Of a stretch of 11,632 nucleotides of DNA, positions 1 through 11,632 are shown in pieces. The DNA is from Candidatus Thorarchaeota archaeon (GTDB lineage Archaea > Asgardarchaeota > Thorarchaeia > Thorarchaeales > Thorarchaeaceae): NCBI GenBank assembly GCA_016839445.1, contig JAEOUG010000108.1, positions 1-11,632 of the forward strand. The letters are read 5' to 3'. Position 1 is the first letter of the stretch. Each line of letters opens with the position of its first letter. The translations under genes and the position numbers were made by a program. The notes under the pieces are model-generated. The model saw only the letters and a list, made by a program, of their open reading frames with translations, was not told where the DNA came from and searched no databases.

Positions 1-968
1 AACTGAGTCTTTTCAGGATTCAGCCGTAGTGCGCCATGAAAAGCAGCCATTTGCAGTACAAAACAGTTGGGGATTACCTGCGCTAGCTGGGTTTCAAGTC
101 CTAAGAAGTCAGGAGCTTGGAGCTGATACGTTCTGAGCTTGAGAGTGTCCTTCAAGACCCTCAAGTAATCATCATTTTGGCCAGACCGGGATGTGTCAGT
201 CACCAAAACGGCACTGTCTTCCTCTTTGAGACCAAGATTGTGGTGATGACAGAACTCCTCCCGAAGGGACGCTATCCCTCTGGTAATCGAGTATTCGTTG
301 AACTTCATCATGCCAATCTGCGCTGCAACGTAGTTTGGCCCCTCAGAGATGAGATAGATAGGATGCTCCTCACAGGTCAGATCCGAGATGATCTTACCCT
401 CTTGCTCTGCCCAGACAAGCGCCCTTTCATCAAGGCTCTGCAGTCGGCGAAGATCTCGGTCTAGTGCGTCTCCGTAGATGTTATCAAACGTGCTCAACAG
501 ATTCAGGAGGTAAGCCATCGCCGCCGTGGTTGGAGCAGAAGGGCTTGTATCGTAGGTCGGCACATGAGACTTGGTAACCCAGAGTTCATCTGCGTGTTCT
601 GAAGCTGCGCCATCGGGATTGTCAGTCAGAGCCACAGTAGTAGCTCCGCTGGCTCTTGCCCGGGCCAGCGCGTCGATTGTGACCAAACTCCTCCCCGATG
701 CCGTTATACCAACTACTGCCGTGTTCGAGCCAATTGGCACATATCTTGTTTCGTCTGGAGAGAGACACAGTGACTTGATGCCAGCGGATTGCATACACCA
801 CTTACCGAAGTCTGCTACAGCGTATGAATCTCCGCAGCCCACGAAGATGACGGTATCTTTGTCCTGCAAAACACTTGCGGGTGAACGGCTTGCTTCCACA
901 ATGGTTCTAGCAACCGAGGTACTCTGTGCTCGCATTGCACCGTAGCATGTTTCATAGAACTCTGTCAT
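1..968 (-). CDS. Double SIS-domain sugar-phosphate isomerase/deglycase (GlmS C-terminal/FrlB/AgaS-like), 3' end runs off the window
   Basis: Not in the ORF track because it has no stop in the window. Manual translation from ATG at 968 is open to base 1: MTEFYETCYGAMRAQ...VIFVGCGDSYAVA...VVGITASGRSLVTIDALARARASGATTVALTDNPDGAASEHAD...IYLISEGPNYVAAQIGMMKFNE...EEFCHHH. GCGDS, (S/T)xSG(R)S and ALTDNP fit the first SIS domain; GPNY...(M/L)KxxE...EEFxH fits the second. No glutaminase domain. Confidence 0.88.
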   Translation of the reverse strand, partial: MTEFYETCYGAMRAQSTSVARTIVEASRSPASVLQDKDTVIFVGCGDSYAVADFGKWCMQSAGIKSLCLSPDETRYVPIGSNTAVVGITASGRSLVTIDALARARASGATTVALTDNPDGAASEHADELWVTKSHVPTYDTSPSAPTTAAMAYLLNLLSTFDNIYGDALDRDLRRLQSLDERALVWAEQEGKIISDLTCEEHPIYLISEGPNYVAAQIGMMKFNEYSITRGIASLREEFCHHHNLGLKEEDSAVLVTDTSRSGQNDDYLRVLKDTLKLRTYQLQAPDFLGLETQLAQVIPNCFVLQMAAFHGALRLNPEKTQ

Positions 969-1035
969 TCCTGGCACCAGTGTAGTTCATTCACGGCAGC
1001 TTCAAGAAGTTCACGGTGCATGACAGAAAGCAGAG

Positions 1036-1057
1036 AGTGGCGCCCCCGCCGGGATTC
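1036..1057 (-). repeat. Exact 22-bp direct repeat of the tRNA-Asp 3' end (att-like site)
   Basis: AGTGGCGCCCCCGCCGGGATTC at 1036-1057 is identical to 2272-2293, which covers the 3' part of the T-loop, the T-stem, the acceptor 3' strand, CCA and 2 nt of trailer. Confidence 0.95.
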
Positions 1058-1448
1058 AATCATGCAGTTGGTGTTCAACTCCTCCTCCCTTGGACTTGAA
1101 CGCGGAGTAATCAAAGTAAAGGACGAAACAAAGGCCTGTCGCTGCTATTGCAAGCAATGCGATGGAGATTAGACCGAACGCCGCTAACACAATGCCATTC
1201 TCAGAAACTCCCAGGGACATCACAAGAGCAAGCAGAGTGAAAGCTATCCCACTTGCGACGAGCAGAAGCCATCCATTCCTCTCCCCTCTCTTGAAATCAT
1301 TCTCAGCATCGAACTCGTGTACCAGCAAGACGCCCCCAAGTCCGAATGCGATTAGAGTTGTAAGGTAGCAGACCAGCGAACCGTAATCCAGAGCGCAGAC
1401 TAGGAACGAGATGAGCAGAAAGATGATTGTAGCTCCACCGAGAGTCAT
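1056..1448 (-). CDS. Hypothetical membrane protein, about 130 aa, about 4 TM helices
   Basis: Four hydrophobic segments separated by a charged loop (HEFDAENDFKRGERNG). I placed the start at ATG 1448 (preceded by GAGGA) rather than 1604, because the longer ORF runs through the tRNA-like repeat at 1541-1561. Stop TGA at 1056-1058. Start uncertain. Confidence 0.65.
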   Translation of the reverse strand: MTLGGATIIFLLISFLVCALDYGSLVCYLTTLIAFGLGGVLLVHEFDAENDFKRGERNGWLLLVASGIAFTLLALVMSLGVSENGIVLAAFGLISIALLAIAATGLCFVLYFDYSAFKSKGGGVEHQLHD

Positions 1449-1540
1449 TCCTCTGTCCTTCTTCCTGCTAACCGACTCGCCTACGAAAATCACCCAACAG
1501 CTACTGAACTGCAGTGAGATATACATCTTACGAAGAGAGA

Positions 1541-1561
1541 TGGCCCGCCGCCGGGGTTCGA
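1541..1561 (-). repeat. Degenerate tRNA 3'-end copy (second att-like site)
   Basis: TGGC-CCGCCGCCGGGGTTCGA versus tRNA-Asp TGGCGCCCCCGCCGGGATTCGA: 19/22 identical with one gap, same orientation, ends in CCA on the minus strand, followed by a pyrimidine-rich trailer. Confidence 0.7.
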
Positions 1562-1600
1562 TCAGAAGAATTGACTCTATCTCACTTCCACAGGCTGTCA

Positions 1601-1957
1601 TCAATCACTAGTCATCTGGACTTGTGCTAACCAACTCTGTATTTCTTGCCTGACGCTTCCAGCCCGATACCCGGAGATGGCAAGTCCTTCTAGTATTGTT
1701 GCGTTTCCAACCAGTTTCTTGATGTCCGTATTACAGTTTGCCACACCGCCGCCCCCATGAGTCACAAATGGAATCACGTTTTTTCCGGACAGATCATGTT
1801 CTGAGAGAAATGTGGCAACTGGCGGTGCAATAGTACTGTACCAGTTCGGAGAACCAACAAAGATTGTGGCGAACCTCTCGAGATCTATCACCTTCTCTTT
1901 CAGAGGCGGCTTGACACCATGGTCAATCTCTGCTTTACTAACTTTCAGGACTTCTTG
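1601..1957 (-). pseudogene. Flavodoxin (Flavodoxin_4-like), N-terminally truncated
   Basis: QEVLKVSKAEIDHGVKPPLKEKVIDLERFATIFVGSPNWYSTIAPPVATFLSEHDLSGKNVIPFVTHGGGG...EIQSWL matches the family core. The N-terminal FMN-phosphate loop (YxSxxGNT) and the D(L/I)xEI...PYP segment are absent; the upstream sequence is the antisense of another gene. Confidence 0.8.
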
Positions 1958-1960
1958 GTC

Positions 1961-2221
1961 TTCTTGGAGGTGCACCCTGAATTGAGTAGTAGGGTCTTGT
2001 CAGATCAGCTAAAGGGATTAGAGAAACATGGCTACATTGAGAAGAAGCTAGTTACTATGAGCCCCGTTCGTGCCGAATATGTACTAACAGAACTCGGAAG
2101 AGGGCTGAACAAGATGCTTTACGAGAAGGCGATGTTCGCAATCAAGTATGGATTAATCGATAGGAATGATCCCTACTTCAGAGGCAATGACAGAGAGAAA
2201 GCATTTGGCATTGAAGAGTAG
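1961..2221 (+). pseudogene. HxlR-family winged-helix transcriptional regulator, N-terminally truncated
   Basis: FLEVHPELSSRVLSDQLKGLEKHGYIEKKLVTMSPVRAEYVLTELGRGL has the HxlR recognition helix and wing (SxxxLSxxLKxLExxGxI...PxRxEYxLTxxG). It lacks the N-terminal KWxxxI helix. ORF bases 1919-1958 are flavodoxin antisense sequence. Confidence 0.78.
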
Positions 2222-2261
2222 GGGTATCACTCAAACTCGTTTAGCAACTCGTAACCAAGGT

Positions 2262-2273
2262 AAAAGGAAGAAG
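2262..2273 (-). terminator. Pyrimidine/U-rich trailer, possible archaeal terminator of tRNA-Asp
   Basis: Minus strand CTTCTTCCTTTT immediately after CCA. Confidence 0.4.
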
Positions 2274-2305
2274 TGGCGCCCCCGCCGGGATTCGAACCCG
2301 GGTCT

Positions 2306-2338
2306 GTCTCTGTCCCTCTCAACACAATGAGAGAAACT
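2306..2338 (-). other. tRNA-Asp intron 2 (33 nt, non-canonical 43/44)
   Basis: Helix CTCT(38-41)/AGAG, bulges TG|A and AC|A, 10-bp internal stem GTTTCTCTCA/TGAGAGGGAC. Removal restores the AGAC variable loop. The outer helix is weak (relaxed BHB). Confidence 0.85.
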
Positions 2339-2344
2339 CAAGAG

Positions 2345-2373
2345 GTCTGCTTCAAGCGCCAATCCGCTTGGAT
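2345..2373 (-). other. tRNA-Asp intron 1 (29 nt, canonical 37/38)
   Basis: Bulge-helix-bulge (BHB): helix CTGT(32-35)/GCAG, bulges CA|A and AC|C, internal stem CAAGCG/CGCTTG, outer helix is the anticodon stem. Confidence 0.92.
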
Positions 2374-2439
2374 TGACAGTCTTGAATGCTAGGCCGGACT
2401 ACACTACAGGGGCTTCAGCACGCTGCAAAGTCGGTTTTC

Positions 2440-2446
2440 TATTAAA
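2440..2446 (-). promoter_or_regulatory. TATA box of tRNA-Asp
   Basis: Minus strand TTTAATA lies 27-33 nt upstream of tRNA G1, the typical archaeal spacing. Confidence 0.65.
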
Positions 2447-2460
2447 GTTGTCGGAGCAGC

Positions 2461-3441
2461 TTACTTCAGCTTCAGAGCCATTATTGTTTCTCCACCGTTC
2501 TCGTACCATCCCAGCTTCGTATACAAACTATGTCCTCTTGTGTTTGTGACCGCACAGGAGAGGCTCATTGTCTGGTATCCGCTTTGCTTGGCTACATTAG
2601 CAATGTGCCTCATCAGAAACTCGCCGAGGCCGTGTTCTCTATGGTCTGGGTGGACTCCCATCCATTCAACAAGATAGTTACCCTCAATACCGTATGGACG
2701 GGCAAACGAGAATCCCGCAATGTGGGTCCCACTTAGAATGGCAATTGTGGCATCGGTTGCCAGACTCTCCGGTTTAGACCAGGTCTGGAAGTACTGCCTC
2801 CTCTCGTTATCACTCTGATCGAAGAAGAAAGGCGACTGCCCTTGACTGAAGGTTTCGTAGTAACACCTGAACAGATTCTCATGGTCTACTTCTCTGACTG
2901 GAACGATATCATATCCTTCAGGTACGGCAAGGGTTTCAATGGCATGATTCTCTAGTTCATATTCCATGAAGATGTCTCTCTCTCTGATGTTGAAACCGAT
3001 TCTTTGATACATCTCCATTGCGAATCTCTGAAGCGCCCGTGCTGTGGACTCAGAGTGACTTCTGTAGAAGATGATAGACTCGAACTCCCTCTCCACAGCC
3101 CACCTACGAATCCAACTGATCAGGTCCATGCCCACCTCCTCCCGATCCAACTCTGGATTTGGAGATACGAACGGATCCCCTCCAAGCCAAGTCGGATTCA
3201 TCTCCACGCTGGTCCTTGTGACTCCCAGACCAACGAAGCCAACGAGATTGTCTTCCCAGTGATACGTGACCCCCATGTAAGACTGGTCGTCATCACTCTC
3301 GAATTCGGTAAGGTATGATTCAATCTTGGCAGGAGTATTACTCTCTCCCCAGTCTGGATTGCCTGCTGCGAAGATTTCGTAGATCAGCTGGGCTATCCGT
3401 TCAAGATCGAGCATCTCCCAATCTGCAATACTGATGTCCAT
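2461..3441 (-). CDS. Tandem (two-domain) GNAT-family N-acetyltransferase
   Basis: 326 aa. The C-terminal domain has motif A (MGVHPDHREHGLG) and NTRGHSLYTKLGW. The N-terminal domain is a degenerate GNAT (LVGFVGL...PFVSP...REEVGMDLI...MYQRIGF). Substrate unknown. Confidence 0.88.
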   Translation of the reverse strand: MDISIADWEMLDLERIAQLIYEIFAAGNPDWGESNTPAKIESYLTEFESDDDQSYMGVTYHWEDNLVGFVGLGVTRTSVEMNPTWLGGDPFVSPNPELDREEVGMDLISWIRRWAVEREFESIIFYRSHSESTARALQRFAMEMYQRIGFNIRERDIFMEYELENHAIETLAVPEGYDIVPVREVDHENLFRCYYETFSQGQSPFFFDQSDNERRQYFQTWSKPESLATDATIAILSGTHIAGFSFARPYGIEGNYLVEWMGVHPDHREHGLGEFLMRHIANVAKQSGYQTMSLSCAVTNTRGHSLYTKLGWYENGGETIMALKLK

Positions 3442-3513
3442 TGTCCTTCAATCCCAGTGTTCTATACTCATATCCATAGACGGAATATGGTAGTGCTGAA
3501 CACGTAGGATTAG

Positions 3514-3522
3514 TATATAATA
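3514..3522. promoter_or_regulatory. TATA-like element, probably for the GNAT gene
   Basis: TATATAATA (minus strand TATTATATA) about 75 nt upstream of the GNAT ATG, in an AT-rich divergent intergenic region. Confidence 0.4.
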
Positions 3523-3858
3523 CCACAGTAAATCCTGAAACCCCTAAATACCTGAAAGGAGTCCATGTTTCGGGCTATTCAATCGTTTTCCTCACTACGG
3601 GAGCAATCCTTGCCAAGTGACAGAGTAAGTTTATTACTGTCGGAGATGTATGTGCAAGTGGCTCACAGAGCCAAGCCGTCCTTAGATGTTATGCCATTTC
3701 GTCGTTTTATCGTAACCCTTTTATGGCTACAGAATTCCCCGTCCGCTGCTCAGACAGAACTGCTTCCCTCATGCATGGCTGTGTATATCTGACATGAGAC
3801 TTCTTGTCATGCAAGAAGAGGCACTGTGCTATGGGACCTTACCCATCTGACGCGACAT

Positions 3859-3965
3859 GGGCTCGTGGCGCAGCCAGGTAGCGCAGCAGGCTTTTAACCT
3901 GGTGGCCTCGGACTCGCCGAGGTCAGGTGAAAGGGCCGCGGGTTCGAATCCCGCCGAGCCCGCCA
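3859..3965 (+). tRNA. trnK: tRNA-Lys(TTT) with a 28-30-nt non-canonical intron near 43/44, CCA encoded
   Basis: GGGCTCG/CGAGCCC acceptor, GCGC/GCGC D-stem, (G)CAGG-CTTTTAA-CCTG anticodon arm, GCGGG-TTCGAAT-CCCGC T-arm, G73, CCA. There are 36 nt between positions 42 and 49 instead of 6, including the hairpin GGCCTCGG/CCGAGGTC. Confidence 0.92.
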
Positions 3966-4127
3966 CTGTCCGCCATGGCACTAAAGGGTCGGGTTCTGCG
4001 AGAGCAAAACAACAAACGGGGCGGCTATTGCGGCAGATGTGTGAGCTCGGATTTCTGGGTTCCATGCGTTGGGAAGCGTGTATGTCTGCAGTAGTTCCCC
4101 CGTCCTTCACGATCACGGTGTGATTAC

Positions 4128-7100
4128 ATGGCAGCAGGCGCACAAGAACGGGACAAGTACTGGCCGGTAATGGAGGCATTCTTTGACCAATACGGACTAG
4201 TAGGTCAGCATCTTGACTCATTCAATCGGTTCATCAGAGAGGAGTTACAGCAAGTAGTTGACAGCGTTGCGAGGCTCACTCCAAAGATAGAGGGCTACAC
4301 TGTAGAACTCGGAGAGATTGCTATCGACCCACCATCAGTCCGTGAGGCTGATGGCAGTGAGCATGCACTCTTTCCGAATGAAGCTCGTATACGGAATCTC
4401 ACGTATGCCAGCAAGCTCCATCTGGAGATGACTCCTGTAAGGAAAGAAGGATCCGTGTCAACTAGACTGGAGACCCTGCGTATCTACATTGGCGACATGC
4501 CAATAATGCTCCGAAGCGAGAAGTGCCTCCTGCACGAGATGTCGGATGAGGAACTTATCGCTCATGGAGAAGATCCAAAGGATCCTGGCGGTTACTTCAT
4601 CATCAATGGCTCTGAGCGAGTTCTAGTAACACAGGAAGATTTGGCGCCAAACCGAATCCTCATTGAAGAAGCAAGCAAGAGCTCGAGTTATACGCACATT
4701 GCGAAGGTATTTTCCACTTCTCGCGGATTCAGAGCGCCTGTCACGATTGAACGGAAGCGCAGTGGAGAACTACGAGTTTCCTTCCCCTCTGTGCCGGGCA
4801 AGATTCCTCTTGCGATTCTTCTCAAGTCTCTTGGTCTGGAGTCAGACAAGGAGATTGTGGATGTCATCTCAGACGACGAGGAGATTCGCAATGAGCTCAT
4901 TGTGACTATTGAACAGTCAGCTCCCATCAATGCGGCGCGAGATGAAGAAGAAGGCTCCACCCGGGTGAACGCCCTTGACTTCATTGGCAAGCGAGTTGCC
5001 GTTGGACAGACCAAGGAATACAGGCTCTCTCGTGCTGAGAAGGTCTTGGACCGCTACCTATTGCCACATGTTGGCACAGAAGAGGATAGCCGTCTGCACA
5101 AGGCCTACTACCTGGGCCAGATGGTTGAGCGCCTCCTAGAGCTAGTATTGAGTAAACGCACACCTGATGACAAGGATCACTATGCAAACAAGAGGTTGAA
5201 ACTCTCAGGGGACCTCCTCATGTCACTCTTCAGAGTGGCACTCTACTCACTCACGCGTGACATCAAGTACCAGCTCGAACGTACTGCAGTCAGAGGCCGC
5301 AAGCCAAACATCAGGACTGCAGTGAGGGCGGATGTGATTACTCAGAGGTTGAAGCACGCTCTCGCTACTGGAAACTGGGTCGGTGGCAAGGCAGGCGTGT
5401 CACAGCTGCTGGATCGGACCAACTACATCTCATCCCTTTCTCATCTGCGCAGGGTTGTATCTCCCCTATCTCGTTCACAGCCTCACTTCGAGGCACGAGA
5501 CCTGCATTCCACGCATTGGGGGAAGATCTGCCCCAACGAAACTCCTGAAGGTCCCAACTGCGGGCTAGTGAAGAACATAGCAATGATGGCATACATCTCA
5601 GTGGGCACTGATGAGGAGTCAATTGAGAGAGCGCTAGTCAAGGCCGAGGTCACAGCTATTGACAAGATACGTGGGAAGCGAGGTGCGAAAGGAGCCGATG
5701 TCTTTCTCAATGGGAGACTGGTCGGTATTCACTCAGCTCCACAGGTACTTGTCAAGACAATTCGTCAGAAGAGAAGGGCTGGAGAGATTGACGCCCAGAC
5801 GAACATTGCTTACTACGAAGATACACACGAGGTTCAGGTGAACTGCGATGCAGGTCGAGTTCGAAGGCCAGTGATTGTCGTGGAGAATGGCAAGAGCCGG
5901 CTCACAGAAGAGCATCTCCGCATGGTAGACGAAGCCGAGTGGAGCTTCTTGGACATTCTTCGCAACGGCATCGTTGAGTTCATTGATGCTGAAGAAGAAG
6001 AGAACACACTCATCGCAATGTATCCTAATGAGATTGGTCCGAACACCACACACCTAGAGATTGTGCCCGCCACAATACTTGGCATATCCGCTGCCCTGAT
6101 ACCCTTCCCAGAGAGGAACCAGTCACCACGTAATGTGTACATGGCTGGCATGGCAAAGCAGTCGGTAGGAGTGCCAGCCGCGAACTTCAGATTCAGAGCT
6201 GACACACGCTCGCACTTCTTCCACTATCCTCAGGTGCCGCTTGTCAAGACGCGTGCTATGGACGCTATTGGATATGAGGAGCGCCCTGCAGGACAGAACT
6301 TCATTGTGGCAATCCTCTCATTCGAGGGCTACAACATAGAAGACGCCCTGATAATGAACAAGGCGTCCATTGAGAGAGGCCTAGGCCGGAGTACCTTCAC
6401 ACGAGTTTACGAAAGCGAAGAGCGCAAGTATCCTGGCGGCCAAGAGGACAGATTCGAGATTCCCGAGCGAAGTGTCAGAGGATACCGCGCTTCAGAGTCT
6501 TACAGGAATCTCGGTGAAGATGGTATAATCGAGACCGAGGTGGAAGTCCAAGGCGGCGATGTGCTCATTGGACGAACGTCACCTCCTAGATTCCTCGAGG
6601 AATATTCAGAGTTCGAGATTGCATCACCCAATCGACGAGAAACCTCAGTGGCAGTCCGCCATGGCGAATCTGGCGTAGTTGACAACGTCATTCTCACTGA
6701 AACTATCGATGGAAATCGTCTTGTGAAAGTAAGAGTAAGAGACCTCAGGATTCCCGAGCTGGGCGACAAGTACGCTTCACGTCACGGACAGAAGGGAGTC
6801 ATCGGCTACATAGTCCCTCAGCAAGATTTGCCGTTCACAGAAGATGGCGTTGTTCCGGATCTTCTGATTAACCCTCATGCCATTCCAAGCCGGATGACCA
6901 TTGGTCAGATACTTGAGATGGTTGCAGGCAAGGCGGCGTGCATGGAGGGCAAGCAGCAGGATGCGTCACCCTTCTCTGGTGTGACTGAACCAGAGCTCTT
7001 CGCGATTCTGCGCAGGCACGGCCTGAAACACAACGGCAGAGAAACCATGTACTCGGGAATAACTGGCGAGCGACTGAAGGTGGACATCTTCATGGGTGTC

Positions 7101-7499
7101 ATCTTCTATCAGAAACTGCACCACATGGTAGCTGACAAGATCCATGCGAGAGCTCGTGGTCCAGTTCAGATTCTCACGCGACAACCTACTGAGGGCCGAG
7201 CCAGAGAAGGTGGTCTTCGATTTGGAGAGATGGAGCGCGACGTGCTCATTGGACACGGCGCCGCAATCCTCCTCAAAGGCCGATTGCTGGATGAGTCTGA
7301 CAAGAGCAACATGCTCGTCTGTGAGGACTGTGGACTGATTGGCGTATATGACAGGAACAAGGACCAGTATTACTGCCCGATCTGTGGCACTAACGCGAAG
7401 ATCAGCAGTGTAGTGGTTTCCTATGCATTCAAGCTTCTCATACAAGAGATGATGTCGCTGGGTCTGGCCACCAGGCTCAGGCTCAAGGAGATGATCTAA
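4128..7499 (+). CDS. rpoB: DNA-directed RNA polymerase subunit B (Rpo2), undivided
   Basis: 1123 aa. QHLDSFN, GGYFIINGSERV, CPNETPEGPNCGLVKN, GDKYASRHGQKG, RQPTEGRAREGGLRFGEMERD and a C-terminal CxxC...CxxC Zn ribbon. SD-like GGTGTGA upstream. Confidence 0.99.
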   Translation: MAAGAQERDKYWPVMEAFFDQYGLVGQHLDSFNRFIREELQQVVDSVARLTPKIEGYTVELGEIAIDPPSVREADGSEHALFPNEARIRNLTYASKLHLEMTPVRKEGSVSTRLETLRIYIGDMPIMLRSEKCLLHEMSDEELIAHGEDPKDPGGYFIINGSERVLVTQEDLAPNRILIEEASKSSSYTHIAKVFSTSRGFRAPVTIERKRSGELRVSFPSVPGKIPLAILLKSLGLESDKEIVDVISDDEEIRNELIVTIEQSAPINAARDEEEGSTRVNALDFIGKRVAVGQTKEYRLSRAEKVLDRYLLPHVGTEEDSRLHKAYYLGQMVERLLELVLSKRTPDDKDHYANKRLKLSGDLLMSLFRVALYSLTRDIKYQLERTAVRGRKPNIRTAVRADVITQRLKHALATGNWVGGKAGVSQLLDRTNYISSLSHLRRVVSPLSRSQPHFEARDLHSTHWGKICPNETPEGPNCGLVKNIAMMAYISVGTDEESIERALVKAEVTAIDKIRGKRGAKGADVFLNGRLVGIHSAPQVLVKTIRQKRRAGEIDAQTNIAYYEDTHEVQVNCDAGRVRRPVIVVENGKSRLTEEHLRMVDEAEWSFLDILRNGIVEFIDAEEEENTLIAMYPNEIGPNTTHLEIVPATILGISAALIPFPERNQSPRNVYMAGMAKQSVGVPAANFRFRADTRSHFFHYPQVPLVKTRAMDAIGYEERPAGQNFIVAILSFEGYNIEDALIMNKASIERGLGRSTFTRVYESEERKYPGGQEDRFEIPERSVRGYRASESYRNLGEDGIIETEVEVQGGDVLIGRTSPPRFLEEYSEFEIASPNRRETSVAVRHGESGVVDNVILTETIDGNRLVKVRVRDLRIPELGDKYASRHGQKGVIGYIVPQQDLPFTEDGVVPDLLINPHAIPSRMTIGQILEMVAGKAACMEGKQQDASPFSGVTEPELFAILRRHGLKHNGRETMYSGITGERLKVDIFMGVIFYQKLHHMVADKIHARARGPVQILTRQPTEGRAREGGLRFGEMERDVLIGHGAAILLKGRLLDESDKSNMLVCEDCGLIGVYDRNKDQYYCPICGTNAKISSVVVSYAFKLLIQEMMSLGLATRLRLKEMI

Positions 7500-7500
7500 G

Positions 7501-11525
<4,025 letters not shown>

Positions 11526-11612
11526 GTGTTGGGTAGATACACGACGGAAGCGTTAAAACAGAATCCCCTTTGACGCAGATAGTCTGCATGGAAACCATGG
11601 AGAGGTTACGAA

Positions 11613-11632
11613 ATGAGCCTAAATCAACCGAT
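11613..11632 (+). CDS. Start of the next gene (MSLNQP...), probably 50S ribosomal protein L30e by synteny
   Basis: ATG at 11613 preceded by GAGGT (11602-11606). Only 6 full codons are visible. The identity rests on the conserved archaeal order rpoA2-rpl30e-nusA. Confidence 0.4.

Follow-up and report, generated by a model that had tools for sequence, protein, structure and literature searches.

Copies of a tRNA-Asp 3' end bound small, integrase-less gene modules in a Thorarchaeota genus

The stretch of DNA analyzed here, called the window, is the complete 11,632-nucleotide (nt) contig JAEOUG010000108.1 (positions 1-11,632) of a Candidatus Thorarchaeota archaeon, from a 2.91-Mb metagenome-assembled genome (MAG) of 190 contigs (GCA_016839445.1; 89.8% completeness, 6.45% contamination). 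Beyond the 3' end of a tRNA-Asp gene with two introns, the window carries two orphan copies of that same end, which delimit two small gene-bearing modules before a conserved SIS-domain gene is reached. Across the genus we found copies of this kind at the tRNA-Asp locus, some of them orthologous between genomes, together with empty and occupied sites and horizontal exchange of the genes between copies, and no integrase at the loci. The tRNA-Asp end is a gene-swapping hotspot throughout the genus. Our preferred reading, to which we give a probability of about 0.55, is that the repeats are att-type (attachment-site) scars of repeated site-specific recombination at tRNA-Asp by integrase-less units, in an array now decaying in this genome; we infer that the recombination was site-specific and catalyzed by an integrase.

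Copies of the tRNA-Asp end in the window

A sequence-only reading of the window had claimed three same-orientation copies of the tRNA 3' end, counting the gene itself, and these are real. Copy 1 starts within the T-loop (GAATCCCGG...CCA plus CT) and consists of two trailer bases (CT), the CCA, the discriminator, the 3' strands of the acceptor stem and T-stem, and four T-loop bases; the 5' strand of the T-stem is missing. Copy 2 is degenerate and has likewise lost the T-stem 5' strand, with positions 1541-1560 lying 3 edits from the 20-mer of the tRNA-Asp end. The family thus has three members (n = 3) on one strand, with spacings of 502 and 734 nt. The 20-mer has two exact matches in the window and none in 200 shuffles (0/200), and the whole-genome search that the sequence-only reading had proposed returned these two as the sole exact copies in 2.91 Mb. 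Since only eight places genome-wide lie within 3 edits of the 20-mer (three in the window, four where other tRNA genes end, and an unrelated one), the probability of a chance match on the right strand of the 1.2-kb interval is ~2e-4. A better preserved orthologue of copy 2, a full 3'-exon copy, follows the flavodoxin stop codon in two other genomes of the genus, G019 and G020 (genomes are numbered G, with the window genome as G000, contigs C, loci L and public runs X).

The pyrimidine-rich trailers to which the sequence-only reading had drawn attention are present, and copy 1 with its trailer matches an orphan copy with trailer in G014 at 93.5% over 31 nt. Such trailers stand at 35 of the 35 tRNA ends listed, so that they mark the copies as tRNA ends with terminator-like flanks and are nothing special. 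No orphan ends of other tRNAs were found among 35 checked in the window genome; the candidates at C20:27640 and C86:3913 were rejected as full multi-intron tRNA genes. When tested as attC hairpins, copies 1 and 2 were both unable to form even the T-arm hairpin, and an Rfam E-value scan gave no match to an attC-type RNA/DNA family. A role as the 3' half of a split or trans-spliced tRNA also failed, copy 1 beginning inside the T-loop and copy 2 being without one base and the T-stem 5' strand.

Both repeat junctions are supported by contigs assembled from other runs, which speaks against the misassembly raised as a possibility by the sequence-only reading. The junction from the SIS gene through copy 1 to the open reading frame (ORF) of module 1 is bridged in X2 (876-1158, 5 differences), and that from this ORF through copy 2 to the flavodoxin fragment in X1 (1269-1732) and X4 (1192-1586), with 0 differences; one of the public runs bridging the junctions may be the source sample. 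Contigs of runs X1, X2, X4 and X5 leave positions 1760-2137 uncovered. No contig of these four runs joined copy 1 directly to the tRNA, which is non-diagnostic as contigs cannot show rare forms.

Table 1. Features of the array and its flanks in the window.
Feature	Position	Strand	Remarks
tRNA-Asp(GTC), encoded CCA, two introns	2274-2413	minus	Rfam RF00005, 38.3 bits at 2277-2413
Copy 1, exact 22-nt tRNA-Asp 3' end	1036-1057	minus	identical to 2272-2293
Copy 2, decayed tRNA-Asp 3' end	1541-1561	minus	~3-4 edits, including one lost base
Module 1	1058-1540		single ORF
Module 1 ORF, 156 aa	1056-1526	minus	ATG at 1526; TGA stop at 1056-1058 overlaps copy 1
Module 2	1562-2273		two gene fragments
Flavodoxin_4 fragment	1601-1957	minus	Pfam profile positions 57-153 of 155
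Deletion junction	1949-1968		duplicated microhomology CTTCTTGG; from alignments to the intact G019 and G020 genes
HxlR-family regulator fragment	1957-2221	plus	Pfam profile positions 25-80 of 91
Spacer, copy 1 to SIS start	978-1035	minus	begins with trailer CTCTCTGCTTTCT
SIS-domain gene	3-977	minus	Pfam SIS, 9.8e-18; conserved distal flank of the array
GNAT acetyltransferase	2461-3441	minus	Pfam; between tRNA-Asp and ORF75/tRNA-Lys
tRNA-Lys(UUU), one intron	3859-3962	plus	Rfam, 56.4 bits; divergent from tRNA-Asp; conserved proximal flank before rpoB

Content of the two modules

The sequence-only reading had described small modules each holding a gene or gene pair; the spacings bear out the small size, and the description of the content fails for module 2, which holds two gene fragments. 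Composition across the modules showed no clear anomaly. The ORF of module 1 has four hydrophobic segments by hydropathy, and its ATG lies 14 nt past the CCA of copy 2; an annotated 181-residue form with a TTG start at 1604 would read through copy 2. It had no match in Pfam, PHROGs or NCBIfam, and no homologues were found in 5.8 billion clustered proteins (a word-indexed search in which only the protein itself matched), in 1.84 billion representatives (full HMMER), in the 27 other genomes of the genus (0/27), or by blastn and tblastx against all fetched loci. Module 1 is therefore predicted to be an ORFan gene for a four-segment membrane protein.

The flavodoxin fragment of module 2 is without profile positions 1-56, which removes the part with the flavin mononucleotide (FMN) loop; complete genes of 166 residues are present in G019 and G020. 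The HxlR fragment, with 90-91% amino acid identity to G019 and G009, has lost ~25 N-terminal residues relative to the full 126-residue gene in G019. At the junction a 5'-truncated flavodoxin gene is fused to a 5'-truncated HxlR gene through a microhomology of 8-10 nt, and in G019 and G009 the corresponding interval is occupied by an aldo-keto reductase gene. Compared with the intact genes, the break sits at a duplicated CTTCTTGG, and both 5' ends and the DNA between them appear to have been removed. Judging from these alignments, module 2 is the microhomology-deletion remnant of a three-gene island and not a minimal cassette. The deletion junction itself is known from one assembly alone, with no contig of another run spanning it. 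In G009, G019 and G020 the HxlR island adjoins the tRNA-Asp end and ends at a copy, and its distal neighbors form three different sets in the three genomes.

Base 1 of the G020 contig (G020:C78, L002) is the exact base at which HxlR homology begins (window 1957); this is either coincidence or perhaps a trace of the same deletion as a polymorphism of that population. A metagenome scan with the G019 HxlR protein returned ten loci, five of them close. The closest (85% amino acid identity) lies beside a flavodoxin-like gene and two unscanned ORFs, one of them the size of an aldo-keto reductase, and no tRNA-Asp copy was within reach of it; the metagenome HxlR loci gave no integrase lead, their ORFs not having been put through Pfam.

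Variation of the locus across the genus

We fetched the locus first from 19 genomes of the genus (20 loci) and examined 11 further loci afterwards; the genus-wide scans cover 28 genomes, the window genome and 27 others. A 17-mer of the tRNA-Asp end, with one mismatch allowed, was present in 23 of the 28 genomes and at least twice in 15. In G010 and G042 both matches look like full tRNA ends on separate contigs; orphan copies were found in at least 13 genomes, plus G019 with one degenerate orphan, at one to three per locus. Every 17-mer match lies on a contig of the tRNA-Asp locus and none on a tyrosine-recombinase contig. Rfam gathering scans recognized at most one tRNA-Asp per locus (one in 14/20 loci, none in 6/20). 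The closely spaced ends that the sequence-only reading had suggested looking for in relatives occur across the genus, the modules being 0.3-1.6 kb: fourteen, in ten genomes, have a copy at each end, or the tRNA at one end and a copy at the other, and measure 321-1594 nt, and a contig of run X4 has two ends only 301 nt apart.

Content varies widely, and the empty sites also sought at the suggestion of the sequence-only reading exist. The relatives' loci hold S-adenosylmethionine (SAM) methyltransferases, a 4HBT thioesterase, hemerythrin, ATC-hydrolase-like proteins and many unknowns, as well as flavodoxin, HxlR, aldo-keto reductase, an AlbA_2/Schlafen protein, a GapS1-like protein, a helix-turn-helix (HTH) protein with DUF1761, DUF4332 and fasciclin. 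Empty sites take the form tRNA-DinB-SIS in G001, G013 and G015, and in L049 the tRNA end lies ~110 nt from SIS. The 68-nt spacer between tRNA and DinB in G015 recurs past the final orphan of G021 (94% over 50 nt) and also past that of G023. G021 and G023 are therefore separated from G015 by two modules and by one, respectively, gained or lost precisely at copies.

The points at which orphans start are recurrent: at AGAC/GAC before the T-arm, in the T-stem and in the T-loop. The AGAC/GAC start is the position of the second intron in the window tRNA, so that such a copy equals the 3' exon. The T-loop start is that of copy 1 and is also seen in G009, G014, G016 and G017. Between G019 and G020, orthologous orphan copies show 4 differences in 34 positions and their flanks are 92.7% identical, which suggests that orphan copies decay like neutral DNA. 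The array in the window genome looks to be decaying rather than active, because copy 2 has lost a base and part of the T-stem, module 2 is broken, and orphans diverge like their flanks. At six module junctions that have no copy, alignment scores for copy remnants were no better than those of shuffles.

Some loci show other arrangements. The tRNA-Asp is inverted relative to the orphans in L015 (G004, 3478-11474), L023 (G014, 3250-10640), L016 (G005, 9900-13653) and L044; its 3' end there abuts a giant gene (1192-1697 residues, no Pfam match), followed by a TnpB gene in G004, G014 and L044 and not in G005, and an orphan 3' exon in the old orientation persists beside it. These loci recall the giant-gene 'aloposons' at tRNA sites in Heimdallarchaeum, as given in the accessible part of PMC8813620. 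In L025 (G016, 3203-3976) a 5' half of tRNA-Asp is followed by a T-loop-broken copy, the 4HBT gene and then a copy with a full T-arm, and Rfam finds no tRNA-Asp in this interval; the gene is either disrupted or holds a very long insertion. The T-loop of tRNA-Asp has three variants across the genus, TTCGAAT, TTCAAAT and TTCAAGT, which are discordant with the RpoB tree (the sister genomes G001 and G013, for example, differ), a pattern compatible with incoming DNA having replaced the 3' exon.

Exchange between species

In a tree of 300 RpoB residues the window genome falls outside a clade of 16 other genomes of the genus (support 95/88). At fourfold-degenerate sites the island of the window and that of G019 are identical at 53 of 80 positions (66%), as against 45/131 (34%) for rpoB and 28-33% for SIS (island versus rpoB, Fisher p = 9e-6). 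The 4HBT gene likewise shows 61-69% identity between clades at such sites versus 35-43% for rpoB. Given this excess over rpoB and SIS, the module genes have been exchanged long after the species split and the flanks not. By this measure module units evidently move between species, as the sequence-only reading had supposed in offering serial capture of minimal cassettes or decayed islands as alternatives; module 2 fits the decayed island, and the analogy with integrons that came with the reading is unproven.

Mechanism and weight of the explanations

In the mechanism we favor, foreign DNA would recombine repeatedly into the 3' end of tRNA-Asp, each event leaving the tRNA intact and shifting the end copy downstream, where it would mark the far boundary of the unit. 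The tRNA-proximal unit would be the horizontally shared island of HxlR, aldo-keto reductase and flavodoxin genes, killed by the microhomology deletion, and the far unit the single ORFan membrane-protein gene ending at the exact copy; the recombinase would act in trans from outside the locus and would most likely be a tyrosine integrase. Site-specific recombination is favored because the repeats are direct and the tRNA is kept intact, because the phenomenon is restricted to one tRNA, and because empty and occupied sites have common flanks. It is also favored because copy start points recur, as differing lengths of attP homology would produce, and because the proximal junction of the island lies in the last 17-20 nt despite differing tRNA bodies.

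Several results weigh against this mechanism. No integrase or fragment of one was found in relatives among 132 ORFs of the first 20 loci (of 148, the remaining 16 being SIS genes) and 37 ORFs of the 11 later loci (of 61, the other 24 being already identified genes and short overlapping ORFs), nor was there at these 31 loci a large integrase-bearing element of the kind whose presence in relatives would, by the sequence-only reading, have refuted that reading. Twenty-two unknown locus proteins gave no mobile-element match in PHROGs or NCBIfam. Recombinases of PF00589 occur in just 8 of the 28 genomes, and no tRNA-Asp end was found at ten integrase loci of the genus or at L033, a partial match in the window's own genome. 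The sole tyrosine recombinase seen in that genome is a partial Xer/integrase-like gene that runs off a contig end (G000:C103:3-506, minus strand). Further, copy 1 is without a T-stem partner and hence offers no symmetric core site, and none of the modules reaches the size of the smallest cryptic integrated element of archaea given in the accessible part of PMC6563490, which is 2.6 kb and has an integrase. The order of ages is also odd for simple serial insertion, the distal copy being exact and its module unique and the proximal unit being old and shared; this age signal is weak, as 22 unchanged bases are not improbable.

Other searches for a recombinase bear on the window genome and the locus. 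In the window no recombinase domain was found in the ten ORFs scanned, and the modules are free of recombinases as the sequence-only reading had stated. That reading had also suggested looking for an orphan tyrosine recombinase elsewhere in the genome; the only match to PF00589 in this genome is the Xer-like gene of C103, partial and of 18 bits. This gene lacks orthologues among the other 27 genomes (E ≤ 1e-5), and it may come from an unassembled mobile element or contaminating DNA. Neither this gene nor the one resolvase (serine recombinase) of the genome, at C92, could be linked to the array. PF16795 had no match in the window genome, and TnpB (G004 and G014) is the sole transposon-type protein at the scanned loci. 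No circle junction, attP or attP-bearing free element was found; viral contigs with the T-loop-to-CCA pattern gave two matches, both rejected as bacterial tRNA genes in 67-70% GC DNA.

In one rival explanation homologous recombination acts alone, with no site-specific enzyme now involved: after one or a few founding duplications, the tRNA and the 3'-exon repeats (20-35 nt) would serve as portable homology arms through which DNA of related species inserts, swaps or deletes content between copies. The lack of an integrase at the locus, deletions that fall exactly between copies, and exchange limited to the genus and to one locus would all fit. In addition, orphans carry the same T-loop variant (GAAT, AAAT or AAGT) as the resident tRNA in most genomes with a non-inverted tRNA (the window, G008, G009, G011, G019, G020, G021 and G023, with G012 and G017 as exceptions), which suggests gene conversion. 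We nevertheless regard this explanation as unlikely, as the crossover on the tRNA side of the island had at most ~17-20 nt of identity to work with: the island sequence begins directly after the CCA, and the window tRNA differs from those of G009, G019 and G020 in T-loop and intron content. It accounts neither for the origin of the first copies nor for the recurrent copy starts, the T-loop start included, in unrelated contexts. It is very improbable that the repeats come from a chimeric contig put together across a short repeat, or from similarity by chance. MAG contamination, the want of coverage over 1760-2137 (which includes the deletion junction) in four runs and the start of the G020 contig exactly at the HxlR breakpoint would fit an artefact; contigs of other studies nevertheless span both repeat junctions with 0-5 differences, shuffles gave 0 matches, the same architecture is present in at least 13 other genomes, and a microhomology of 8-10 nt is too short for an assembler join.

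A dedicated integron-like system would consist of minimal units, each one gene or a few plus a tRNA-Asp 3' exon copy, that form circles and are inserted at the tRNA or at orphans by an off-locus recombinase; the co-directional array may then be expressed by read-through from the tRNA promoter, and the ORFan ATG 14 nt after copy 2 would leave no space for a promoter of its own. About nine modules have such a form, with one gene running in the direction of the tRNA and its stop no more than ~40 nt from the next copy: the ORFan and the flavodoxin in the window, MT278 (G004, G014), U483, U210, U292, U187, MT282 and HTH plus DUF1761 (G009), with exceptions in distance of up to ~90 nt (MT278 in G004, U483) and ~200 nt (U210). 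The pattern fails for the HxlR, 4HBT, hemerythrin and ATC-hydrolase-like genes. Mobility of whole units is suggested by MT278, whose module measures 938 nt from copy to copy in G004 and 939 nt in G014 (81% identity) with different neighbors on both sides, and by the 4HBT module, which is copy-bounded on both sides in G016 and has the tRNA end on one side in G021 and is precisely missing between copy and neighbor in G014 and G017. Modules as short as 301-332 nt, the horizontal exchange of module genes and 31 loci without an integrase also agree with such a system. We hold it to be rather doubtful all the same: the arrays are not accompanied by any recombinase, neither circle junctions nor free elements bearing an attP were found, orthologous orphans diverge as much as their neutral surroundings and copy 2 has lost a base, distal blocks (ORF253-4HBT-hemerythrin and ATC-hydrolase-like) contain no copies inside them and run on the other strand, and module 2 is a broken three-gene island. 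More broadly, and as a tentative idea that we think improbable, the genus may maintain a tRNA-Asp-anchored cassette platform on which units of one to three genes, without an integrase and each closed by an exon copy, are captured, reshuffled and passed between species, driven either by an off-locus recombinase or by what would be recombination on the exon copies themselves. Such a platform, if real, would be a functional analogue of the integron with a tRNA exon as its basis, in the archaea most closely related to eukaryotes.

Flanking genes and tRNA annotation

The SIS gene continues beyond the contig end onto C102, window 1-127 being identical to C102:48040-48166. SIS homologues adjoin the locus in relatives, and amino acid identity to all of them is 45-53%; a foreign origin of the gene was rejected, as the position of the window genome outside the other 16 in the rpoB tree explains the divergence. 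Most relatives have a 154-residue DinB-family gene immediately upstream of SIS and co-directional with it. This gene is missing from the window, G008, G012, G016 and G017, and in the window, G008 and G012 a tRNA-end copy lies instead 59-94 nt from the SIS start.

On the other side, tRNA-Asp and ORF75/tRNA-Lys are ~100 nt apart in most relatives, and the GNAT gene that separates them in the window had no tblastn match in the relatives' loci. G015 and G023 have other unknown genes at this position. The 5' side of tRNA-Asp is thus a second variable spot, outside the repeat array, and no repeats were seen there. The 75-residue ORF between the two tRNA genes (3565-3792) is conserved in relatives (48-80% amino acid identity); it had no family match and is not recognizably RpoH. 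Beyond tRNA-Asp and the divergent tRNA-Lys the window holds the rpoB, rpoA' and rpoA'' genes. Over its first 400 residues the RpoB of the window has 86-90% identity to RpoB of Candidatus Thorarchaeota MAGs, which places the organism among the Asgard archaea.

The Rfam alignment, from which the GTC anticodon is taken, places introns of 31 nt within the anticodon loop and 34 nt immediately before the T-arm of tRNA-Asp. The gene was missed by ARAGORN with introns allowed, which detected 22 tRNA genes genome-wide, and by an Rfam-based search of its own genome, which detected 31. The tRNA genes of this genome are intron-rich, including non-canonical introns before the T-arm, and CCA is encoded in every one listed. 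Standard tRNA finders overlook such intron-rich genes and fragments of them, a warning for annotation.

Comparison with known systems

Gene flow in Asgard archaea is debated and its routes are little known; at this locus foreign genes have a tangible point of entry that has been used more than once. Its value lies in clean exon-copy boundaries, sequence evidence of moving cargo against static flanks, and the absence of the usual enzyme from view. If a recombinase acting in trans or a mechanism based on exon homology were true, this would be a new way to build variable gene arrays; if the ordinary reading is true, the locus still documents well, for an archaeon, tandem att scars with unusually small, integrase-free units. 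In open-access text we found no description of tRNA-exon arrays in Thorarchaeota. An Asgard mobile-element paper, in the part available, has integration at tRNA genes by much larger elements, and the accessible part of PMC6563490 mentions arrays of integrase-type elements in archaea.

Islands linked to tRNA genes are known to grow in bacteria by successive integrations at the tRNA, with partial tRNAs left behind, according to the accessible part of the work on tycheposons (bioRxiv 10.1101/2020.12.28.424599). As in the Prochlorococcus tycheposon islands described there, direct tRNA 3' copies bound the units, the same tRNA receives new units, old units decay, the cargo is ordinary and accessory, and content differs between close relatives. 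Those islands, as far as that part of the text goes, hold tyrosine recombinases and fragments of them, unlike the 31 loci here, where none was found; our units are also only 0.3-1.6 kb (~2-2.6 kb for the HxlR island), they belong to an Asgard archaeon, and what is repeated corresponds to a tRNA 3' exon. Archaeal 'gene capture' by SSV-type integrases, which split their own gene upon integration (PMC7253208, accessible part), resembles the locus in having archaeal chromosomal DNA between direct repeats of the downstream part of a tRNA and no working integrase left. It differs in that no int(N) or int(C) fragments run through the copies, the genome lacks PF16795, and the ORF ending at copy 1 is a membrane-type ORFan.

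With integrons, which have been reported in Archaea (PMC9668308, accessible part), the array shares small, mostly single-gene units, many of them co-oriented, with a repeat after each, variable content and no internal recombinase. Unlike an integron it has no adjacent IntI, its repeat is a tRNA exon copy and not an attC hairpin, its anchor is a tRNA gene and not attI, and many genes of the locus lie outside such units; by the features tested it is not an integron. Elements with tRNA-targeting tyrosine integrases provide the 3' direct repeat at the far end, the intact tRNA and the matching empty-site flank, and differ from the units here, which encode no integrase. The CIME-type cis-mobilizable elements related to streptococcal ICEs (integrative and conjugative elements) have no integrase, are att-flanked and are mobilized by the integrase of a related element. 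They share with the modules attL/attR-like flanking repeats, the lack of recombination and transfer genes, tandem arrangement and signs of horizontal spread, and differ in domain of life and scale and in that no helper element or integrase was found for this array. What is unusual at the loci examined is the absence of an integrase, fragment, attP or helper and the very small size of the units. By analogy with these systems, the locus appears to work as though att-flanked units lacking an integrase accumulated in tandem at a tRNA gene.

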